The position numbers and the translations under genes were made by a program. Below are positions 3,406 through 37,708 of a stretch of 40,347 nucleotides of DNA, piece after piece. The notes under the pieces were generated by a model. The model searched no databases. It was not told the origin of the DNA and saw only the letters and a program-made list of their open reading frames with translations. Every line of letters starts with the position of its first letter. Within the stretch, counting starts at the first letter, position 1. Source of the stretch: a virus (taxonomy: Duplodnaviria > Heunggongvirae > Uroviricota > Caudoviricetes); IMG/VR virus record IMGVR_UViG_2728369181_000008. One strand, written 5' to 3'.

Positions 3406-6052
3406 TTGCATACTCCTTAGCCCAGCGGGGCAGTGATAACGTTTTAATAGCTGGCCATTCATCGGTATTCAGGCAGTCAGCCAGGGTCCTCAGATTGCGG
3501 TGATATTCCTGCTGGCCTGCCAGTTTTGCTTCTTCGCCCATCATGAAAATCTCAACCGGGTAACGTCCGCATTCAACAGTTGTGCTGGCAACCAGAAAAA
3601 CGAAAGTTGGCAGCACACCAAACTGTGCTTCATAACCGTCACTGTAGAATGCATCCTGAACGTGATAGCGGTAGTCGTAATAAGCCGTTTTGAATCGTTG
3701 AATATCCGCTGTGGTTTTCACGTCCATGATCCAGTGAAATTCAGGAATAATTTTGTCCGGACGGCACCGACACAAAATTCCTGTTTCCGGATCTTCCCAG
3801 TAAATTGATGATTCAGCGTGTCCGGCGCTTTCCACAAGCCATTGACCCAGCGGCAAAGCCATAACGCTCTGATACATGAGTTCAATTTTCCGGCCTTCTT
3901 CGGCAGTGATAACCGTTTTTCCTGTGCTTGCGCATTCCATCAGAAACGCTTTCTCTTCTTCTTTTCCGGCGTTTGTACGGCGGTTAAATTCAGGTGCTAC
4001 GATAAAGCGGTTACTGAATTCTTCCGGTTCAAGTACACGGCAGTGGAAAGCGGTTCCTAAATCGAGCGTTTTTGTCTTTGTGGTGTCCACAGGGGCATTT
4101 TTACGCCACAAATACAGCGCCGGAGTATCAGCAATGTCGTCGAGCTGAGACTTACTGACACCGGGACCCGCGTGGTAATTCTCATTCGAAATTCCGTAAT
4201 AAATACCAGGCTCTATGTCTCCTGCGATTACGGGATCTGCGACTTCGCCAGTTTCATCACTGCAATCGCGATGCAGATCGCTGCCAGCATTCTCATTGTG
4301 CGGATGTTCAGGGCCTTCCATTTCCTCCGGCTCTTTTTCCTGAGATTCATCCAGATTTTCTTCATTAAAGGTTTCCTGATACGTTGCGTCGCCCATCACC
4401 GCGCCACAGTCAGGACAGTTGCCGCCGCCAGCCTGACCGCAGGCATTGCAGACTTTTTCCAGTTCCTGTTGCGCTTCTGGTTCATTTTGTCGCGCATTTT
4501 GGCCGTTTTGTTCCGATTTTCGGTCGTTCTGTTCTGTTTCTGGCTGATGCTGGTACACAGAATCGCGGGTCTGGATCCCTTTAACCCATTTCGGATCATT
4601 CGGGTCGCTAATCCCTTCAACAAATTCTCCGCGAGAGGCAGCCAGTAATTTGTCTGCATCGACAGGATTTTTGGGCGGAATGTTTTTCCGGGCTTCATGG
4701 AGTTCTGCCCGCAGTTTCTGATATTTCGCATCAACAGAATTTACCTGTGACTGAGCATCCAGCGGCTGCGTGTCCTGATGATGTTCAGTTGCATCCGGTT
4801 CCACTGTTTCAGCCGTTGCCTGTTCATCTGCCATTGCGCAAGATGGTTGCGGTTTTTCTTCATCATCCTGTTTTTCTTCTTCTGTTACACGCTGCGGCAT
4901 CGGGGCAGAGGAGCGACCGCAGGCAATATCCACGATTTCCGGATCAGGGTTGGCATGATCGGTTTCAGTCAGTACTTTGTTCAGATATTCAGTGACGTGT
5001 GCGGGGATGACCTCGATCCCAATTGGTGCTTCTTTTACGGACGCAACCACGATGGCGCGGGAATAATCCAGCCCGCCAGGCATGGTGATGAATTTGTCGC
5101 GGAAAACAGAAAAGGGCGGTTTATTTTCAGCGATAATTTCCTCGACACGTTTAGCGTGTGCCGGATGAAGGTTATAAATGTCCACGTCCATTGAACGGGC
5201 CAGTACGCCAGTGGCTACGTCGCGCGCCAGTGACGTCAGATCGTGAACGAAACCTTCGCCGCGATCGGTGAGGTTCCCGCCGCCAGCATTAGCGCCGGAA
5301 GCCGTGCGCGTGATGCGTGAAACACGATTTCCTTTCATCCACTCTTTTGTCAGCAGACCGCGATCGGTGTAGTCTGCGTCCAGGTATGCTTCGAAAAAAG
5401 CAGTCATCAGCCCCAGGCTTGAATTGCCTGGATTAGGGAAAACTCTGTCAGTATCACGCACCAGTTTGTGGAGATCGCGAATTTCCAGCGGGTCGAGCAG
5501 GCTGGTTTTGTGGGAAACAGCCAGGGCAGTAACAGCCGGTAGTTCCTCAGCCCGTGCAATGTGTAATGCCTGGAGTTCGTCGCGTGAAACGTGCGTTACC
5601 GGTTTTTCGCTGCCGTGTTGAGCAAGCCAGCGAATGGGCAGCTCCTGGCCAGAAATCGGGAGTAGCATATTCTCCTCAATCTCCGTCATGTCTTCGCCAT
5701 TAACATTGGTATTGTCAGTGCTGGCTGGTTTGTCCTGCGCAGAGGGTGAGGGCGCGATAAATACCATTGTGATGCCATCTTCCCCGCCTTTTTCGTAACG
5801 GTTGCAGAATTCCGTATCAAATACGCCTTCTGGCGGGAGGTCATCAACAACGGGCAAATTGACGCGAACAGGTTTTTTAAAGTCATCTTCATCGTAGCCA
5901 GCATCGTCAATCGCAACAGCACCACGGGAGATGGCAATGGATAATTTTTTCGCTTCAGCCCAGTAAAAACCGCCTTTAATACCGAGACGTTTTCTTACTT
6001 TGTCATTTTTTGCTTCGTAATACAGTGGATAAACTTGTTTATCGGTGCTCAT
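3398..6052 (-). CDS. recE: Exodeoxyribonuclease VIII RecE
   Basis: 884-aa ORF; C-terminal nuclease domain (…[25 protein letters not shown]…MDVKTTADI) as in Rac RecE; N-terminus and exact start uncertain; overlaps recT start. Confidence 0.93.
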
Positions 6053-12148: not shown

Positions 12149-12571
12149 ATGGCAAAAGTATTTACACAAGAAGAGCGAGAAAAAATTAAAGGGCAGGTTG
12201 TTGAGCTAGTACGCCGGAGTGGGCGCGAGACGTTACGGCAACTGGAAGCCAAGACAGGCACGACAAGATATCTGATGAGCGTTCTCGCCAAAGAGCTGGT
12301 TGCCAGTGGCGATGTATACAACTCTGGTTACGGGTTATTTCCGTCTGAACAGGCCCGTAAGGATTGGCAAAACGCCCGCAAAAAACTATCCAGGGCAAAG
12401 GTGAAAAAAACGGTTGTGGTTGATCCTGACCTTATCTGGTCATTACCAGACGGAGAAATACGCCGCTACGACAGGCGCCTGAATATAATCTGTCGCGAGT
12501 GCCGGAAGAGTGAAGTTATGCAGCGTGTACTGGCGTTTTATCAGGGTAACTTTCAGGAGGTGGCACAGTGA
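12149..12571 (+). CDS. Hypothetical phage protein
   Basis: ORF with RBS ggagg 5 nt before ATG at 12149 (the track uses TTG at 12134). Confidence 0.5.
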   Translation: MAKVFTQEEREKIKGQVVELVRRSGRETLRQLEAKTGTTRYLMSVLAKELVASGDVYNSGYGLFPSEQARKDWQNARKKLSRAKVKKTVVVDPDLIWSLPDGEIRRYDRRLNIICRECRKSEVMQRVLAFYQGNFQEVAQ

Positions 12572-13329
12572 GCGGGATTGACTATCAGGCACTGCGTGAT
12601 GCGGCAGAAAAGGCAACTACAGGGAGCTACATCGTAGGGCATACATCTGTTAACCAGCACGGTAATTTAACAGGAGTTTTTGTTTGTCAAAAATGGAAAG
12701 GAGAACCCGGTGGCGTGATTGCAGAATGTCACGTTAACTGCCTGGTTGAAACAGATGCTCAGGCTTATGCAAACGCTGAATTTATTGCTGCCTTTAATCC
12801 AAATGTTGCGCTGGCACTGCTGGATGAACGGGAAAGAAACCAGCAATACATCAAATCCCGCGACCAGGAGAACGAGGATATTGCACTAACGGTGGGGAAG
12901 CTGCGTGTTGAGCTTGAGGAAGCAAAATCAAAACTCAACGAGCAGCGTGAATATTACGAAGGTGTTATCTCGGATGGGAGTAAGCGTATTGCTGAACTGG
13001 AGAAAAGCGAAGAGCAACTCATTAATGAGCGTGACCATGCTGAGTCTGCTTTGGATGATATGTACTTTGCAGCAACCGGGGATAGGCCTGAGTGGAGTAA
13101 CTGGTTCGGCTTTTCAGATGCTGTCGATGCCGTGGTTGACAGAATTGCTGATTTAGAAGCTAAACAGCCATCGCCAGTAGTACCGGAAGGACTGGTTAAA
13201 GCAGTGCGCTTTTATGAACAGGTTAAGCGTGAGAATCCGCCAGTCGAAACCGGAGCATGGAAAGACGCTGTTGACTGGGTGCTCAAAGAGGCTTGCCAGG
13301 CTGTAAACATTGGCATCAAAGGAGAGTGA
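12568..13329 (+). CDS. Ead/Ea22-like family protein
   Basis: 253 aa; N-terminal region with ALLDERERNQQY and a coiled-coil segment as in lambdoid Ea22-like proteins; GTG start with RBS aggaggtgg. Confidence 0.65.
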   Translation: MSGIDYQALRDAAEKATTGSYIVGHTSVNQHGNLTGVFVCQKWKGEPGGVIAECHVNCLVETDAQAYANAEFIAAFNPNVALALLDERERNQQYIKSRDQENEDIALTVGKLRVELEEAKSKLNEQREYYEGVISDGSKRIAELEKSEEQLINERDHAESALDDMYFAATGDRPEWSNWFGFSDAVDAVVDRIADLEAKQPSPVVPEGLVKAVRFYEQVKRENPPVETGAWKDAVDWVLKEACQAVNIGIKGE

Positions 13330-13359
13330 GGATGTTCAATAATTTGCCTGGTACTGGTT

Positions 13360-13409
13360 NNNNNNNNNNNNNNNNNNNNNNNNNNNNNNNNNNNNNNNNN
13401 NNNNNNNNN
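13360..13409. other. Run of 50 N (assembly gap or masked sequence)
   Basis: Read directly; truncates a small ORF starting at 13332. Confidence 0.99.
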
Positions 13410-13511
13410 TTGTTTTCGGTGTCATTTGCGCCGTTATTGGTTGGGCAGTTATTGAGTCCATTCTTTGGCTGCTTTCTTTCATTCACATAACTATTGGTTG
13501 AGAACTGACCC

Positions 13512-14234
13512 ATGACCACTTTCACCGACAAAGAACTGATTAAAGAAATCAAAGAGCGCATAGGCAGCCTGGACGTGAGAGACAATATTGAGCGCCGTGC
13601 TTATGAAATTGCTCTGGCATCGCTGGAGGCAGAGCCAGTGGCAAAAATTATAGCTCACTACCCATTAGGAATTGACGTAGGCAAACAAAAGTTCGTACAG
13701 GCCATTGGAGAGCTTCCTGACTTTGGAGGATATCTATTCGTCGCTCCACCTGTGCCGGTAACACAGGCTGATGTCGCGCAAGCAATTGAAAACCTCAAGC
13801 AGAAGTTAGTGGAATGCAATCGCTATAACTACTGTGCAGATGCCGTTAAAGGTGTTGAGGATGCCAGCCGCGTCTTGGCACTCCAAAATCAAAATATATC
13901 AGCGCCGCTAACTTCGGATGCCATTGAAAACGCGATTGAATTCATCCGCAGCATCGCTTTTCACATCAATGAAGACGATTACCACGGCAAACATATTGCG
14001 CATTACATGCAGCAAGCATTGGCCTGGCTGGAAGGGCATTCATGCAGCGCAGACAGTCAGGGCAAATCCGATAATTCACCATTGCCGCGCTACCAGGTGA
14101 TCGAATTAACAATGCTGGTTAAACAATTGGTTAGCCAATTGAGGAAAGCGAAGCCGGACTGCAAATTACCGGAGAAGGCGATGGTCTACCTGAAGCGAAA
14201 CGGACTGATAAGCGCGGAGGATATTTTACGATGA
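13512..14234 (+). CDS. Hypothetical phage protein (240 aa)
   Basis: Long ORF in the nin-like region; no motif recognised. Confidence 0.5.
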   Translation: MTTFTDKELIKEIKERIGSLDVRDNIERRAYEIALASLEAEPVAKIIAHYPLGIDVGKQKFVQAIGELPDFGGYLFVAPPVPVTQADVAQAIENLKQKLVECNRYNYCADAVKGVEDASRVLALQNQNISAPLTSDAIENAIEFIRSIAFHINEDDYHGKHIAHYMQQALAWLEGHSCSADSQGKSDNSPLPRYQVIELTMLVKQLVSQLRKAKPDCKLPEKAMVYLKRNGLISAEDILR

Positions 14235-14313
14235 CCTGGCCTGAAGCATTCACAACGGTAGGAATTGCACTGGCGGTGGCGCTGGTGGTGTATTCGATTT
14301 GCCGTTGGGGTTA
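14231..14313 (+). CDS. Candidate 27-aa hydrophobic microprotein (MTWPEAFTTVGIALAVALVVYSICRWG)
   Basis: Start overlaps the upstream stop (ATGA); single predicted TM helix; immediately followed by a terminator. Confidence 0.3.
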
Positions 14314-14317
14314 ACAA

Positions 14318-14350
14318 ACAAAAACCCCGGATTGATGGTCCGGGGTTTTT
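14318..14350 (+). terminator. Rho-independent terminator
   Basis: aaaaaccccggattgatggtccggggttttt. Confidence 0.7.
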
Positions 14351-14688
14351 GAAGGAAACAAAACAGAAACAACAATTGCCGTTACCTGTTGTTACCATGG
14401 CAAGTAAACGTATCTCAGGCGAGCGCATTGCGCCGTTCTGACGCAGATAAATTAGCCTGGATAGAAGGTGCTGGCAATAAAAAATAGCGTTTTCTTATCG
14501 GTGTCGGTAAGATTGCTGCGGGTGCTTGAGGCTGTCTGCCTCGGGCATGCCACTGTAAGGCAGACAGAGAAAAGCCCCAGTTAACATTACGCGTCCTGCA
14601 AGACGCTTAACATTAATCTGAGGCCCAATCTATGTCTCACAAATGTAGGTTAGCCTCTTACGTGCCGAAAGGCAAGGAGAAGCAGGCT

Positions 14689-19772: not shown

Positions 19773-19857
19773 NNNNNNNNNNNNNNNNNNNNNNNNNNNN
19801 NNNNNNNNNNNNNNNNNNNNNNNNNNNNNNNNNNNNNNNNNNNNNNNNNNNNNNNNN
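19773..19857. other. Run of 85 N (gap/masked)
   Basis: Read directly. Confidence 0.99.
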
Positions 19858-25614: not shown

Positions 25615-25653
25615 NNNNNNNNNNNNNNNNNNNNNNNNNNNNNNNNNNNNNNN
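25615..25653. other. Run of 39 N (gap/masked)
   Basis: Read directly. Confidence 0.99.
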
Positions 25654-32148: not shown

Positions 32149-34192
32149 ATGAACGCTGAAACTATTAAAGATTTCCTCGTCTCGCTTGGCTTCAGTGTGG
32201 ATGATGCTGGAGCAAAAAAATTCGGTTCTGTCCTCGCCGGTACAACTGCAAATGTCATCAAAATGGGGTTGGCCGTTGAAGGAGCTGCACTGTCCGTGGT
32301 GGCCTTTACGGCTAAGATTGCCTCCGGCCTGGATAATCTTTACTGGGCGTCACAGCGCACTGGCGCGACAGTCCAGGGAATTCAGTCTATTGGCTATGCG
32401 GTTTCGCAGGTTGGCGGCAGCGTGGACGCTGCGCGATCTTCTCTGGAAAGCCTCTCCCGGTTTATTCGTAACAATCCCGGGGCAGAGGGATTTCTGAATC
32501 GCCTGGGGGTACAGACACGGGATGCCAGCGGTAACATGCGTGACATGGCCGCTATTTTTACAGGTGTAGGCCAGAAGCTCAGCGGTATGCCGTATTACCG
32601 GGCTAACCAGTATGCGCAGATGCTGGGCATTGACGAAAATACCCTGATGGCTATGCGTCGCGGAGTGGGGCAGTTCAGCGCTCAGTATTCAGAAATGGTG
32701 AAAGCGATCGGATTTAATGCCGATCAGGCTGCCTTATCGTCAAACCGGTTTATGACCTCGCTGAAATCGCTCGGTGAAATGGCCGGGATGGCGCGGGACA
32801 AAATCGGATCGAATCTTGCGGACGGACTGGCGGGGCAGATTGATAACCTGCGCAAAAAGATNNNNNNNNNNNNNNNNNNNNNNNNNNNNNNNNNNNNNNN
32901 NNNNNNNNTTTCCCAAAATTGAAGTCACCATCACAAAGGTCATAAAAGGGATCCTCTGGCTGGGTGAGATAGTCGGGCGGGTAGCATTTCGGATAGTCGA
33001 TGGTGTCGGAGATATCATCGAGTGGTGGGGGAAACTGGATGCCGAAACGAAAACCCTGATAGAGGTTATCGGCGGTCTGGTTGTCGCCATGCGGATACTT
33101 AACTCTACTTTCTGGATGTCACCTATAGGGCTGATTACCGGTCTGATCGTGGCTCTCGGTCTCTTGTGGGAAGACTACAAAACATGGAAAGAAGGCGGTA
33201 ACAGTCTTATCGACTGGGAAAAATGGCAACCGGCAATAGATAAAGCGAAGGATGCGATCACCTGGCTTCGTGATCACCTTCTGGAACTAAAAGATGGTGT
33301 TGGCGGCTGGCAAAATGCACTGGAAATCCTCGGTACATTCATCGCGGGTGTCTGGGTATCCAAGGTTCTGGGGGCTTTCGGAAAAATATCAGGTTTACCG
33401 GTCCCACCCTGGCTTAAATTGTGGGCGCTTTACGCGGGCTATATTGTTAGTGACAGAGAAAATATTGCCGATAGCGCAAAATCTTCACTGAGGTATACGA
33501 AGCGAATTATCGGCGACACGCTGGCTGCTATTGGTATAAAAACAGATATCGGACGCAGGGATGTCAGTGAGGTCCGTGAATGGCCTGCGTGGATGGACTG
33601 GTTGCACGGGGGACCCGGTAAAGTTATCCGGCAGGGACAGAGTAACGGTGTAGTGCATGGCTCCAACGTCCAGCCCGACATCCCCGGCGGCGGCACTCTT
33701 GCTGATCGCAACAATAACCCCGGGAACATTCGCCCGGTGAGCGGTAAAGGGTTCCGGTTTTTCGAATCAGCGCTTAAGGGCTGGGAGGCGATGAAAAACC
33801 AGCTCATGCGTTACTTTACCGGGAAAACAACCGGACGGGCATTACAGACTATTCAGGATATTGTCAGTACCTGGGCCCCGGCAGGTGATAACAACGATCC
33901 GAAAAAGTATGCACAGGATGTTGCGAAATGGATGGGAGTATCACCGAATGCAATATTGAATCTTACAGATCCCCGGACTATGGGAGCATTGATGCAGTCG
34001 ATGGCGCGCAAAGAAGGTTATTCAAACTGGAACAGCCCGCTGGCGTATCAGGCCGCCGCTGGCAGCCTTAACCAGCAGACTGTTATAAATGTTCATGGAG
34101 TTAACAACCCTCAGGAGGCGGCTAATCTGATTGCTGACAAGCAGGGGGCTGTAAATGCCAGGGCGGTACAGCAATTGAAAGGGCCTGCGTGA
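32149..34192 (+). CDS. Tail tape measure protein (interrupted by an N-run)
   Basis: About 680 aa; helical N-terminal half, hydrophobic central segments, Gly-rich C-terminal region; RBS ggagagagga before ATG at 32149; reading frame across the gap unverified. Confidence 0.7.
32862..32908. other. Run of 47 N (gap/masked) inside the tape measure gene
   Basis: Read directly. Confidence 0.99.
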
Positions 34193-35150: not shown

Positions 35151-36185
35151 ATGTCGAAAAACTGGATGCGTCACTTTGAATTATTGCTTGTTGATGATAA
35201 GGGCGACGGGATAAAAATTTCTGAGCTTAAAGTCACTTTCAATATTCAGAAAATGCCTGCGACCATATTTAATGGATTCGTTGGAAATTTTAAGGTTTAT
35301 AACCTGTCTCCTACCACTCAGAACCGGATTATGCAGAAGGAGTTTTCGCGTATACAGGTTATTGCCGGATACAAGGGGCAACCGGATGCAGCAGGTAATT
35401 ATCCTGATGAAAACGTTGGCATGATATTCAATGGAGATATCCGTTTTACTGTCACTGGTAAAGATAATGCCACAGACAGTTGGATCATGTTGCAGTGTAT
35501 TGACAGCTGGGAAGGTCACCTGAACGCAAGTGTGAAAACCACAGTGGCTGCTGGCTGGAAGTACAGCGATCTTTTCAGTCTGGGTATGAAATCATTCGAA
35601 CCATATGGCATCGAATCCGGCGCAGTTCCTGACATGCCTGAAACGGTATTTCCCCGGGGGCGCGTTGTTTATCAAAACACATCAAGGTTGATGAATCATA
35701 TCGCAGGGCAGTGTAAGGCTAACTGGTGGTATGAAAATAATCTGGTAAATATTGTTCCTGAAGATAAATATATTGGTGTTGCTACGGTGTTGAATGCTAA
35801 CACCGGGCTTATCGGTATGCCACAGCAGACGATGGGAGCTGGCGTAAATGTCAGATGTCTGATTAATCCAAATATTAAGCTCGGTGGGCTTATTCGTCTG
35901 GATCAGGCATCTGTATACCGTGCCTCTTTGAGTAATGACCAGGTAGCGAAATCGCCAGCACGACTGGATGAGTCTGAAAGCGACGGTAATCTCTACGTTA
36001 ACGGTCTGCCAGGCATGTCACAGCCTGCCAGTATTAATACTGACGGTGATTACATTGTGGGCAGCATTGATTATACTGGCGACACCCGAGGGCAGGCGTG
36101 GTATATGGACCTGCTTTGCCTGGCTAAAGGTGGCAAAGAACTATTGGCAAAAGGCACTTTTGACAAAGTCGGAGATGTAGAGTGA
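35151..36185 (+). CDS. Baseplate hub protein (Mu gp44-like)
   Basis: 344 aa upstream of the spike/gpW/gpJ-like genes. Confidence 0.5.
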   Translation: MSKNWMRHFELLLVDDKGDGIKISELKVTFNIQKMPATIFNGFVGNFKVYNLSPTTQNRIMQKEFSRIQVIAGYKGQPDAAGNYPDENVGMIFNGDIRFTVTGKDNATDSWIMLQCIDSWEGHLNASVKTTVAAGWKYSDLFSLGMKSFEPYGIESGAVPDMPETVFPRGRVVYQNTSRLMNHIAGQCKANWWYENNLVNIVPEDKYIGVATVLNANTGLIGMPQQTMGAGVNVRCLINPNIKLGGLIRLDQASVYRASLSNDQVAKSPARLDESESDGNLYVNGLPGMSQPASINTDGDYIVGSIDYTGDTRGQAWYMDLLCLAKGGKELLAKGTFDKVGDVE

Positions 36186-36517
36186 AAAAAGTATTTTTTT
36201 GTTTATTCTTGGCCTTGCCGTTAACAGTTTCGGCGGCAACGCAGTGCGGACCATTCCGTTTTGATGCTGGTAATGATGGTCTCATGCACATCAATGGTCA
36301 AAAGCCAGAAACACAAAAAATGACCTTTTTGAAACAAAAAGACGATTTCGATAATGTCATGATGCAATGGATGTTACCTGATCCTAATACTGGACGTTGG
36401 TTAGGTATGGACTACATCAAACGAAACAAAAAAGCGATCCTCAACGTTGAAGTTATCCGCAAAAATATGGACGAGCCTCGGGAGTTCTGGACGTATGATT
36501 GCCGGAAGGTGAAGTGA
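36182..36517 (+). CDS. Secreted small protein with signal peptide and two Cys (moron inside the baseplate operon)
   Basis: GTG start overlapping the upstream stop (GTGA); MKKVFFCLFLALPLTVSA|ATQC signal peptide; AT-rich codon usage. Confidence 0.55.
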   Translation: MKKVFFCLFLALPLTVSAATQCGPFRFDAGNDGLMHINGQKPETQKMTFLKQKDDFDNVMMQWMLPDPNTGRWLGMDYIKRNKKAILNVEVIRKNMDEPREFWTYDCRKVK

Positions 36518-36592
36518 ATTACATTGGCGTCCAGCTTCTGCAGAACAGCATGGATGCGCCGAAAATCATCGGTTCCTTTCCATGCAAAAAGA

Positions 36593-36620
36593 TTGTTGAT
36601 TAATCACCCGTAATTATAAT
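36593..36620 (+). promoter_or_regulatory. Sigma70-like promoter TTGTTG-N16-TATAAT for the membrane-protein gene
   Basis: Consensus -10 TATAAT at 36615-36620; -35-like hexamer at 36593-36598. Confidence 0.5.
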
Positions 36621-36656
36621 GTGATACTTCTACTTTCACGATAAGGAATTTGTCGC

Positions 36657-36896
36657 ATGTTCGGATTTGATAAATTAATAACTCCAAAAATCATCAACGT
36701 TCTGTATGGCATCACAATGTTACTTCTGGTTGTTGCCGCCATTATAACGTTTGTTAATGGGAAGGCTGCTGGCGCTTTAGTGCTTTTGTTATGTGCTGTA
36801 TTTTGCCGAATATTCTTTGAGTGCATCATGGTTTCATTTAAAAACAATGAGTATCTTCGCCGAATAGCTGAAGCGTTAGAAGCAAACAAGCAGTAA
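36657..36896 (+). CDS. Small inner-membrane protein (two predicted TM helices; DUF4282-like)
   Basis: RBS aaggaa; hydrophobic segments ITMLLLVVAAIITFV and ALVLLLCAVFCRIFF; followed by a terminator. Confidence 0.55.
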   Translation: MFGFDKLITPKIINVLYGITMLLLVVAAIITFVNGKAAGALVLLLCAVFCRIFFECIMVSFKNNEYLRRIAEALEANKQ

Positions 36897-36912
36897 TGAA
36901 ACTTCAATAATG

Positions 36913-36936
36913 AACCCGCCACCCGGCGGGTTTTTT
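36913..36936 (+). terminator. Rho-independent terminator
   Basis: aacccgccacccggcgggtttttt. Confidence 0.7.
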
Positions 36937-36955
36937 ACTTTCTGGAGACATATGA

Positions 36956-37708
36956 ATGCCCGTTTCTTTAAGCGCTCAACTTGGTAGCAAAGAACAGGCC
37001 GATGTAAGACTTGCTGGCTCTGTCATGTCGGCGCTGCGTGTTTCTATGCCCGGCATCGTCCAGTCATTTGATCCGGACACGGTAACAGTGGTTGTTCAAC
37101 CTGCGATTAAAGGCTATGAGCCGGACTCAAATGGAATCAACCAGTCGACGACATTACCCCTGCTGGTGGATGTGCCAGTGGTATTTCCGCGCGGCGGAGG
37201 CTGTACGTTGACTTTTCCAGTTAAAGCCGGTGATGAATGTTTGGTGATTTTTGCCGATCGTTGTATTGATTTCTGGTGGCAGAGTGGCGGGATACAGGAG
37301 CCGGTCGATGACAGAATGCATGATTTATCGGATGCGTTTTGTATTGTCGGTCCCCAGTCGCAGGCAAGGAAGATTAGCGGTATTAATACCAGTGCCACAC
37401 AGTTGCGTAGTGATGACGGCAGCACCTATTTTGAGCTTAATCCTGATACCAGGAAAATTAAAATTGTCGCTCCGGGGGGCCTTGATGTGGTTGCCCCTCT
37501 GGCTGATTTTTCTGAGAAAGTAACCATTCATGGCCTGTTAACCTGGATGGGGGGTATGGTGGGGTCTGTTGTTTCTGGCGTGGCTTCAAAAATCACTGGT
37601 GCTGTTGAGTTCTTGGGGAGCGTTAAGGCTAACGGCAAGCCAATCGATGATACGCACACTCATGGCGGTGTTCAGCGCGGTGGAAGCAGTACCGACGGGG
37701 TAAACTGA
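36956..37708 (+). CDS. Baseplate spike / assembly protein V-like (Mu gp45-like)
   Basis: 250 aa; C-terminal …DDTHTHGGVQRGGSSTDGV typical of gpV-type spikes; RBS ggagaca. Confidence 0.65.
   Translation: MPVSLSAQLGSKEQADVRLAGSVMSALRVSMPGIVQSFDPDTVTVVVQPAIKGYEPDSNGINQSTTLPLLVDVPVVFPRGGGCTLTFPVKAGDECLVIFADRCIDFWWQSGGIQEPVDDRMHDLSDAFCIVGPQSQARKISGINTSATQLRSDDGSTYFELNPDTRKIKIVAPGGLDVVAPLADFSEKVTIHGLLTWMGGMVGSVVSGVASKITGAVEFLGSVKANGKPIDDTHTHGGVQRGGSSTDGVN

Follow-up and report, generated by a model that had tools for sequence, protein, structure and literature searches.

A Predicted Exported Accessory Gene and a DUF4282 Membrane-Protein Cassette as Independent Units in the Baseplate Operon of a Lambdoid Prophage

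Introduction

Small exported phage proteins that act in the envelope against incoming phage include T4 Spackle, T5 Llp, and phi80/N15 Cor, with Llp and Cor being encoded next to tail or receptor-binding genes. Here, we explored two genes that lie between the baseplate hub and spike genes of IMG/VR virus record IMGVR_UViG_2728369181_000008, a stretch of 40,347 nucleotides (nt), referred to hereafter as the window. The window is a lambdoid Escherichia coli prophage; its early region is Rac-like (recE, recT, ralR, kilR) and its tail is contractile. Gene 1, whose family we call FAM1, encodes a protein of 111 amino acids (aa) with predicted export (36182..36517), and gene 2 encodes a 79-aa DUF4282 protein with two transmembrane (TM) helices (36657..36896); these and all other features located below are on the plus strand. 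For small inner-membrane proteins of tail operons the point of comparison is HK97 gp15, an exclusion protein encoded by a promoter/terminator cassette next to the tape-measure gene (PMC3594210). The way in which gp15 blocks genome entry is tail-dependent, and chromosomal relatives of gp15 are known as YebO (PMC3594210).

Gene 2 and HK97 gp15 are alike in several respects. Both are small inner-membrane proteins encoded by a self-contained cassette in the tail operon, near tape-measure/tail-tip genes, both cassettes end in a hairpin-T terminator just before the next tail gene, and both proteins have chromosomal relatives outside prophages. They differ in size and TM count, gp15 being of 62 aa with a single N-terminal TM helix and the gene 2 protein of 79 aa with two, and in that gp15 precedes the tape-measure gene, whereas the gene 2 family follows it or sits in the hub–spike slot. 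BLASTP gave no alignment of the two proteins at E up to 100, and membership of gene 2 in the gp15/YebO family was rejected, given the lack of homology and the two TM segments versus one. Exclusion has been shown for gp15; for gene 2 it would be an analogy. Gene 1, for its part, shares with Spackle, Llp, and Cor a predicted export, a place among tail-tip genes, and lipoprotein-fused relatives. It differs from them in that no homology was found, in its structural model, an all-beta barrel, and in looking like a late-operon gene without a standout promoter candidate. Neither Spackle nor any other known exclusion protein is among the structural matches listed for the gene 1 model, and a MliC/PliC- or Spackle-type periplasmic lysozyme inhibitor was considered and discarded, as no homology or specific fold match to a known inhibitor was found. 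The region as a whole also recalls prophage cargo/defence hotspots, with which it shares a fixed position, conserved flanks, and swappable cargo that includes toxin-antitoxin and defence-like genes; it differs from them in its place within the baseplate operon, with gene 1 and the spike on either side, and in that much of its cargo is envelope-targeted.

Results

The preliminary description of this region correctly reported both open reading frames (ORFs) between hub and spike, and took them for a pair inserted there together. The distribution of the two families speaks against the latter. We surveyed 55 loci with both hub and spike, namely 43 from species-representative genomes (dozens of Enterobacterales species), the window, and eleven further E. 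coli/Erwinia loci. A FAM1 member stands directly 3' of the hub in 51 of the 55 (in two of these only a fragment is left); FAM1 and DUF4282 occur together in just seven, and FAM1 without DUF4282 in 44. Conversely, DUF4282 without FAM1 is seen in Hafnia, Klebsiella, Pantoea, and phage GF-2. Among 5426 complete E. coli genomes the gene 2 cassette is found, at least 99% identical, in 84, compared with 311 genomes matched by the hub-to-spike query, and only 26 of the 84 have a full-length window-type gene 1. The cassette also stands beside the gene 1 allele of another surveyed locus, L004, such that a cassette at least 99% identical adjoins gene 1 alleles homologous at just 37% identity (E = 2e-27; common motif QCG...ING...LNV...C.K). 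It is absent from L002, L003, L005-L009, and most of the 55 loci. Moreover, a relic of another gene 1 allele stands between genes 1 and 2. Judged by gene content and distribution, the region is two independent units. Conservation in all related phages, which the preliminary description had named as the outcome that would tell against its reading, nearly holds for gene 1.

The start codon of gene 1, a GTG, shares bases with the stop codon of the hub gene in the sequence GTGA (36182-36185). A GGAG stands 8 nt ahead of this start, and the same ORF is annotated by RefSeq in near-identical prophages. At the N-terminus the protein reads MKKVFFCLFLALPLTVSA|ATQCG, a sequence of Sec signal-peptide form; the signal peptide is predicted to span residues 1-18 (36182-36235) and to leave a mature protein of ~93 aa. 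In ~40 homologues, all those with an extractable N-terminal segment, a Sec-type N-terminus is kept, with a basic stretch, then a hydrophobic core, and then, 1-8 residues ahead of a conserved Cys, a site resembling AxA, the segment being otherwise free to vary in sequence. In the homologue alignment C22 of the mature protein is invariant and C107 nearly so. Thus, a signal-peptidase I-type site and a Cys pair suited to a periplasmic disulfide point to Sec export. In agreement, every element of the earlier account of gene 1 (a 111-aa exported protein with a signal peptide, two Cys, and translational coupling via GTGA) can be read from the sequence.

The family itself is narrow. A word-indexed search gave 134 gene 1 homologues, with no Pfam domain in any of those listed, and an exhaustive profile search of 1.84 billion proteins gave 53 clusters at 50% identity, with no informative fusion partner; a 632-aa repeat protein among the FAM1 profile matches looks spurious and was set aside. 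Some FAM1 members are fused to a ~190-aa lipoprotein N-domain, for which Pfam has no match. The gene 1 protein matches PHROG 3443 (7e-48), and found no match in Pfam, in the NCBIfam hidden Markov models (HMMs), in PADLOC, or in a profile search of PDB. RefSeq gives E. coli FAM1 alleles the name "STY1065/STY2022 family phage-derived protein," which carries no function, and nothing relevant was found in the literature on STY1065 or STY2022. An AlphaFold2 model (predicted local distance difference test score 88) is all-beta, with eight strands in a small beta-barrel; as modeled, the fold would be a generic avidin/lipocalin-like barrel, and neither PDB nor BFVD holds an informative structural match. 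The ratio of nonsynonymous to synonymous substitution rates (dN/dS), 0.04-0.12, indicates strong purifying selection.

The position of gene 1 is equally constrained. E. coli prophages that have this module nearly always place a 110-117 aa protein with a signal peptide right after the hub, and three loci (L047, L060, and L062) show a minimal state, in which the hub is followed by FAM1, ~10 nt, and the spike, with no terminator between. Gene 1 had been described as an insertion between hub and spike, a view at odds with its place directly after the hub in 51 loci and with these minimal, terminator-free arrangements. The same facts, together with the GTGA coupling, set gene 1 apart from a moron. 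Its guanine-cytosine (GC) content of 0.40 is its only moron-like trait (0.38-0.40 over genes 1 and 2 versus 0.48-0.53 in the flanks), and the best promoter-like score upstream of it, 7/12, is the commonest score for random sequence. FAM1 is nonetheless replaceable: a few relatives, including two deposited phage genomes, have other proteins there, mostly exported or lipoproteins. In L003, with a hub of ~98% DNA identity to that of the window and a spike of 99% protein identity, there is yet no FAM1, and the hub is followed by an 84-aa signal-peptide protein rich in Thr/Gly/Cys; similar peptides replace FAM1 in L022 and in phage EKP1. Hafnia phage yong1 is likewise without FAM1. In L033 and L043 the position is taken by lipoproteins of 374-379 aa; L037 and L039 have a FAM1 fused to an N-domain that, judged by eye, is similar to part of the N-terminal region of these lipoproteins. 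Lipobox-bearing FAM1 fusions or replacements thus occur at the same position in some relatives. Compared with FAM1 as a possible remote homologue, a 136-aa signal-peptide protein that takes its place in L022 gave an hhalign probability of 12.6%. On this evidence gene 1 is an operon gene and not a moron, a near-constant yet replaceable accessory of this Enterobacterales temperate-myovirus tail module, and the position right after the hub would nearly always hold an exported or lipoprotein accessory, FAM1 being the usual occupant. A near-constant exported gene inside a baseplate operon appears to be undescribed, judging from the lack of a literature match for the STY names.

Some observations on the FAM1-less loci are worth recording. 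The 80-84 aa signal-peptide proteins directly after the hub (L003 3522-3776, L022 4545-4787, and L166 3532-3774) have repeated TTNTGTTYC-like motifs and no Pfam match. L166 is OM284015.1, "Elizabethkingia phage EKP1," deposited with a Flavobacteriia host; its hub is 74% identical to that of this E. coli prophage and its tail module is of the enterobacterial type, and the host assignment looks doubtful. Outside this group, the virulent PB1/E217 phages also have an ORF at this place: Pseudomonas phage PB1 has a 177-aa ORF without a signal peptide, ORF40 (L085 9601-10134), between hub (gp41) and tail tip (gp43). By gene order we took it as E217 gp42, a protein that appears nowhere in the E217 virion-structure paper and that may be an assembly factor. 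This PB1/E217 ORF was considered as an equivalent of gene 1 and rejected, as it lacks a signal peptide; it also seems unrelated.

Gene 2 matches Pfam DUF4282 with 42.2 bits (cut-off 27), its residues 2-71 covering profile positions 2-85 of 86, and PHROG 12129 over the full length. Both are families of uncharacterised membrane proteins, and no literature mentioning DUF4282 was found in the library searched. The gene has a ribosome-binding site (RBS), AAGGA, 9 nt before the ATG, and codes for two hydrophobic segments, so the earlier reading of a 79-aa two-TM membrane protein stands. In the family alignment the conserved parts are an N-terminal FDKLITPKI, a C-terminal FKNNEYLRRI, and an invariant pair in TM2, R51 and E55; the TM cores are variable and the loop has 3-5 residues. 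By the positive-inside rule both ends are probably cytoplasmic. A dN/dS of ~0.18-0.20 was obtained, and the Pfam scan also returned a weak resemblance to YbhQ.

Signals of a self-contained cassette surround gene 2. GC content is 0.38 over 36520-36880, compared with 0.48-0.53 in the spike gene and downstream. A candidate sigma-70-like promoter (36593..36620) ends 36 nt before the ATG and combines a weak -35, TTGTTG (36593-36598, three of six matches), a 16-nt spacer, and a perfect -10, TATAAT (36615-36620). The pattern TTG-N19-21-TATAAT has its sole match here on either strand of the 40-kb window; because about one match is expected by chance, it is the position of the site, 36 nt before the ATG, that counts. 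A consensus promoter scan did not call it. The TTGTTG-N16-TATAAT of the preliminary description is therefore there to be seen, and its label "near-consensus" was generous. On the other side of gene 2, an intrinsic terminator recognized by the scan (36912..36939) consists of the hairpin GAACCCGCC-ACCC-GGCGGGTTT and a T-run; it lies 16 nt before the spike start codon, and the hairpin itself (36912-36933) has a folding energy of -16.7 kcal/mol (z = -3.5 vs. shuffles).

This terminator is part of a wider arrangement. Hub-to-spike distances range from 352 to 2845 bp across loci, and the space between gene 1 and spike has recurrent borders. On the right, regardless of cargo, one recurring hairpin, AACCCGCC-loop-GGCGGGTTTTTT, nearly always precedes the spike RBS; it is absent from the minimal loci without cargo. 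Hence, the hairpin and U-run reported earlier are real, while "dedicated" does not suit a structure that, nearly identical, closes the slot behind other cargo. Covariation of the terminator was tried as evidence and abandoned, as the stems are invariant (CCCGC/GCGGG) and only loops vary, which gives no information. On the left, the slot is bordered by the conserved 3' end of gene 1, which in the window takes the form of the relic mentioned above (36528..36603), the last 25 codons and stop of a different FAM1 allele (...QLLQNSMDAPKIIGSFPCKKIVD*). Compared with FAM1 3' ends elsewhere, the relic shows 98.8% identity to that of L004, where the gene is intact, and 84-92% to those of L005-L009, and the candidate -35 of gene 2 falls inside it. 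Belonging to a different allele, it indicates that a block of hub plus gene 1 was swapped in by recombination; as its sequence reads, the relic is a recombination scar, a pseudogene remnant. Taken with its conserved flanks, the region directly downstream of gene 1 is a cargo hotspot.

The cargo found there in other loci is diverse. It comprises several signal-peptide proteins, a Phd/YefM-Doc(Fic) pair (L027 5429-6270), a YafO-family toxin with an upstream partner (L008 3239-4235), and, in L059 (5498-6724), a coiled-coil protein of 408 aa that contains a T5orf172/MUG113 domain, T5orf172 being present also in L066. A two-gene cargo recurs in L002 (4095-5245), L009 (2090-3245), L005 (2203-3356), L007 (3225-4384), and L069 (4877-6026). 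It consists of a ~243-263 aa helical/TPR-like protein and then a ~126-142 aa protein with an AISRAYY...R(N/R)xADY motif, HEPN-like by eye (sizes include 257+126 aa and 243+140 aa); Pfam yields only a weak TPR, and these sets may be toxin-antitoxin or defence pairs. A second recurring family, of ~112-122 aa and exported (L003 3812-4153, L022 5194-5535, L026 5349-5687, and L057 5430-5798), has a signal peptide, an N-terminal DFF..HPEL-type motif, and two Cys near the C-terminus, and occurs with or without FAM1. Finally, L031 has an "empty" slot (5421-5482), with the terminator hairpin alone between FAM1 and spike, which may be a scar of cargo loss.

Beyond this slot, the gene 2 family recurs in other places. 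More distant copies, with 45-70% identity, fill this very slot in Erwinia, Pectobacterium, and, where FAM1 is lacking, Hafnia; in siphovirus-type prophages of Klebsiella and in Edwardsiella phage GF-2 such copies come immediately behind the tape-measure gene, and in Pantoea behind the lysis cassette. Homologues 62-67% identical are located in non-phage chromosomal neighbourhoods. A hairpin-T terminator follows the family member in every context examined for it, and a promoter-like site usually precedes. Of 79 IMG/VR loci of the family, 38 are preceded at a distance of 0-61 nt by an ORF of 550 aa or more (in a sample of these long ORFs, nine of ten were Pfam TMP_3), 32 are in the hub–spike slot, and nine elsewhere. 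De-replication at 90% identity left 27 clusters, 21 of them after a tape-measure gene and two in the hub–spike slot. Patchy presence among close relatives, an own terminator, and a deviant GC content mark gene 2, as far as sequence tells, as a moron-type cassette, of a known kind, the tail-operon moron encoding a small membrane protein. The earlier proposal of a separately signalled, envelope-targeted moron thus holds for gene 2, with its promoter-like site, terminator, low GC content, patchy presence among near-identical prophages, and recurrence in several unrelated phage contexts. The tape-measure/tail-tip positional bias of this DUF4282 subfamily appears to be undescribed, no literature match for DUF4282 having been obtained.

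As for the setting, the tail-tip genes of the window encode a tape-measure protein with an SLT domain, a Dit-like protein, a Pam3 gp18-type plug, an E217 gp41-type hub, a Gp138_N/Apex spike, a sheath initiator, a baseplate J protein, and a DUF2612 wedge. The hub gene (35151..36185, 344 aa; Pfam E217_GP41, 1.4e-7; PHROG 196 "baseplate hub," 5.9e-80) is the left border of the region, and the spike gene (36956..37708, 250 aa, with a Gp138_N domain and an Apex motif; Pfam PF18352, 1.5e-44; Apex, 1.5e-4) is the right border. The Pfam matches (Dit-like, Pam3 gp18 plug, E217 gp41 hub, Gp138_N spike, DUF2612) assign the module to the E217/Pam3/phi92 type and rule out a Mu-like tail module, whose adjacent hub and spike genes had been invoked at first. 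A closely related, largely collinear prophage of strain LWY24, adjoining yebY/copD, is 92-99% identical to the window, apart from gaps and, in the early region, a single segment of higher divergence; its annotations include a holin, an endolysin, and an Rz1-like LysC. The window has four runs of N (13360-13409, 19773-19857, 25615-25653, and 32862-32908, the last inside the tape-measure gene), and run lengths disagree with the LWY24 counterparts (85 N vs. ~41 nt, 39 vs. ~10, and 47 vs. ~10). In the early region, window positions 12544-14507, with ORFs at 12568-13329 and 13512-14234, have no counterpart in the otherwise collinear LWY24, which has in their place an ATP-binding protein, a STAS-like protein, and a hypothetical protein; this is probably another site of cargo exchange.

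Discussion

The best explanation of the region as a whole, in our view, is that of two independent units, an exported late-operon gene 1 and a gene 2 cassette in a hotspot, each with the role suggested below; we give this full account about an even chance of being right. Gene 1 would be translated by coupling to the hub, made along with the tail proteins, and exported as a soluble periplasmic beta-barrel. The gene 2 protein would insert as a hairpin into the inner membrane, and we infer that its gene has a promoter of its own that is active in the lysogen, where the terminator would keep this transcription out of the spike gene. During lytic growth late transcription would have to read through the terminator, presumably via lambdoid antitermination. 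As to function, gene 2 may block the entry of incoming phage genomes in the manner of HK97 gp15, where tape-measure/tail-tip proteins cross the inner membrane. This gp15-like model is favoured because of the tape-measure/tail-tip positional bias; it falls somewhat short of an even chance. Gene 1 might serve exclusion or immunity, acting in the periplasm on the envelope or on the tail tip of an arriving phage; this role is suggested by analogy with Spackle, Llp, and Cor, and we hold it to be rather doubtful.

Several observations weigh against these readings. DUF4282 goes unmentioned in the literature of the library searched, and no family among the PADLOC-DB defence HMMs matches gene 1 or gene 2 at E up to 1. 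The conserved parts of gene 2 would face the cytoplasm and its periplasmic loop is of 3-5 residues, which fits a host inner-membrane or cytoplasmic partner better than a periplasmic tail tip, and its close, 62-67% identical homologues outside prophages make a role in host physiology possible. Upstream of gene 1 no promoter candidate stands out (7/12), and its production in the lysogen may fail, which weakens a classical exclusion role. For gene 2, the -35 is weak, and the score of the candidate promoter, 9/12, is equalled or surpassed in ~2.5% of random 120-nt segments of the window; the corresponding score is a weak 6/12 in the Erwinia copy and, in the Klebsiella and GF-2 copies, 8/12, a value typical of random sequence.

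These points bear most directly on a different role for gene 2, as a small regulator of a host inner-membrane protein or stress response, that is, a lysogenic-conversion or fitness factor and not an anti-phage one. A host partner or a part in host physiology would be favoured instead of exclusion because the conserved motifs are cytoplasmic (or intramembrane) and because non-phage homologues exist; the weak resemblance to YbhQ and the missing PADLOC match are in line with it. On the other hand, 23 of the 27 viral clusters adjoin tape-measure/tail-tip genes, a bias unexpected for a generic fitness gene, and the gp15/YebO precedent illustrates that a phage exclusion gene may have chromosomal relatives. 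We see a host regulator as unlikely, while taking it seriously.

Further behind is the idea that one or both genes take part in lysis or in its timing, as holin, antiholin, or spanin accessory, or that gene 2 is an abortive-infection membrane toxin. In its favour, the product of gene 1 is probably periplasmic and made late, gene 2 has two TM segments with a charged pair in TM2, one Pantoea context is just after a lysis cassette, and the slot elsewhere hosts toxin-antitoxin cargo. Nevertheless, a holin, an endolysin, and an Rz1-like LysC are already annotated in the LWY24 prophage, no holin or spanin family matched either gene in the Pfam, PHROG, and NCBIfam scans, and no antitoxin partner is apparent for gene 2; we hold this option to be improbable.

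It is still a little less probable that genes 1 and/or 2 are ordinary conserved tail genes, encoding structural parts or assembly factors such as a hub or spike chaperone. The near-universal presence of gene 1, its coupling to the hub, and the tight packing of the operon are what such a role would lead one to expect, and PB1/E217 also have an ORF between hub and tip, one absent from the virion-structure paper. However, all gene 1 homologues have a signal-peptide-like N-terminus and the Cys pair, with lipoprotein variants in the same place, whereas tail assembly happens in the cytoplasm. FAM1 is missing from L003, with its near-identical hub and spike, and from phages yong1 and EKP1, the ORF of PB1 lacks a signal peptide and seems unrelated, and the DUF4282 two-TM protein is missing from most members of the module. 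Gene 1 is thus unlikely to be a virion part or a tail-assembly component, because it is predicted to be exported and is replaceable. Last, the preliminary description's one two-gene moron, of effector plus membrane partner, has on its side that the genes are adjacent, both envelope-targeted, and both low in GC, and that the order hub-FAM1-DUF4282-spike is seen in E. coli, Erwinia, and Pectobacterium, but it is largely refuted by the distribution given above and strikes us as very improbable indeed.

Returning to two independent units, it is tempting to extend them to a two-layer envelope defence linked to the tail tip, an extension that we consider unlikely as it stands. The first layer would be the swappable exported protein or lipoprotein after the hub, here FAM1, directed against incoming tail tips or the muralytic domain of the tape-measure protein. 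The second would be an inner-membrane exclusion layer of DUF4282 proteins of the FKNNEYLRRI type, which would then be a widespread, so far unrecognised exclusion family linked to the tape-measure gene.

Overall, the slot between gene 1 and spike offers a defined hotspot in which to seek accessory, toxin-antitoxin, and defence genes of Enterobacterales prophages. Gene 1 is unusual in being a predicted exported and near-constant member of a baseplate operon, and its role would show what temperate tailed phages put in the periplasm. If DUF4282 proteins do exclude phages, they would be a second, unrelated family beside HK97 gp15, the single well-studied inner-membrane exclusion moron of a tail operon. 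In turn, the tape-measure bias of gene 2 would provide a testable link to the poorly understood opening of the inner membrane by tape-measure/tail-tip proteins.

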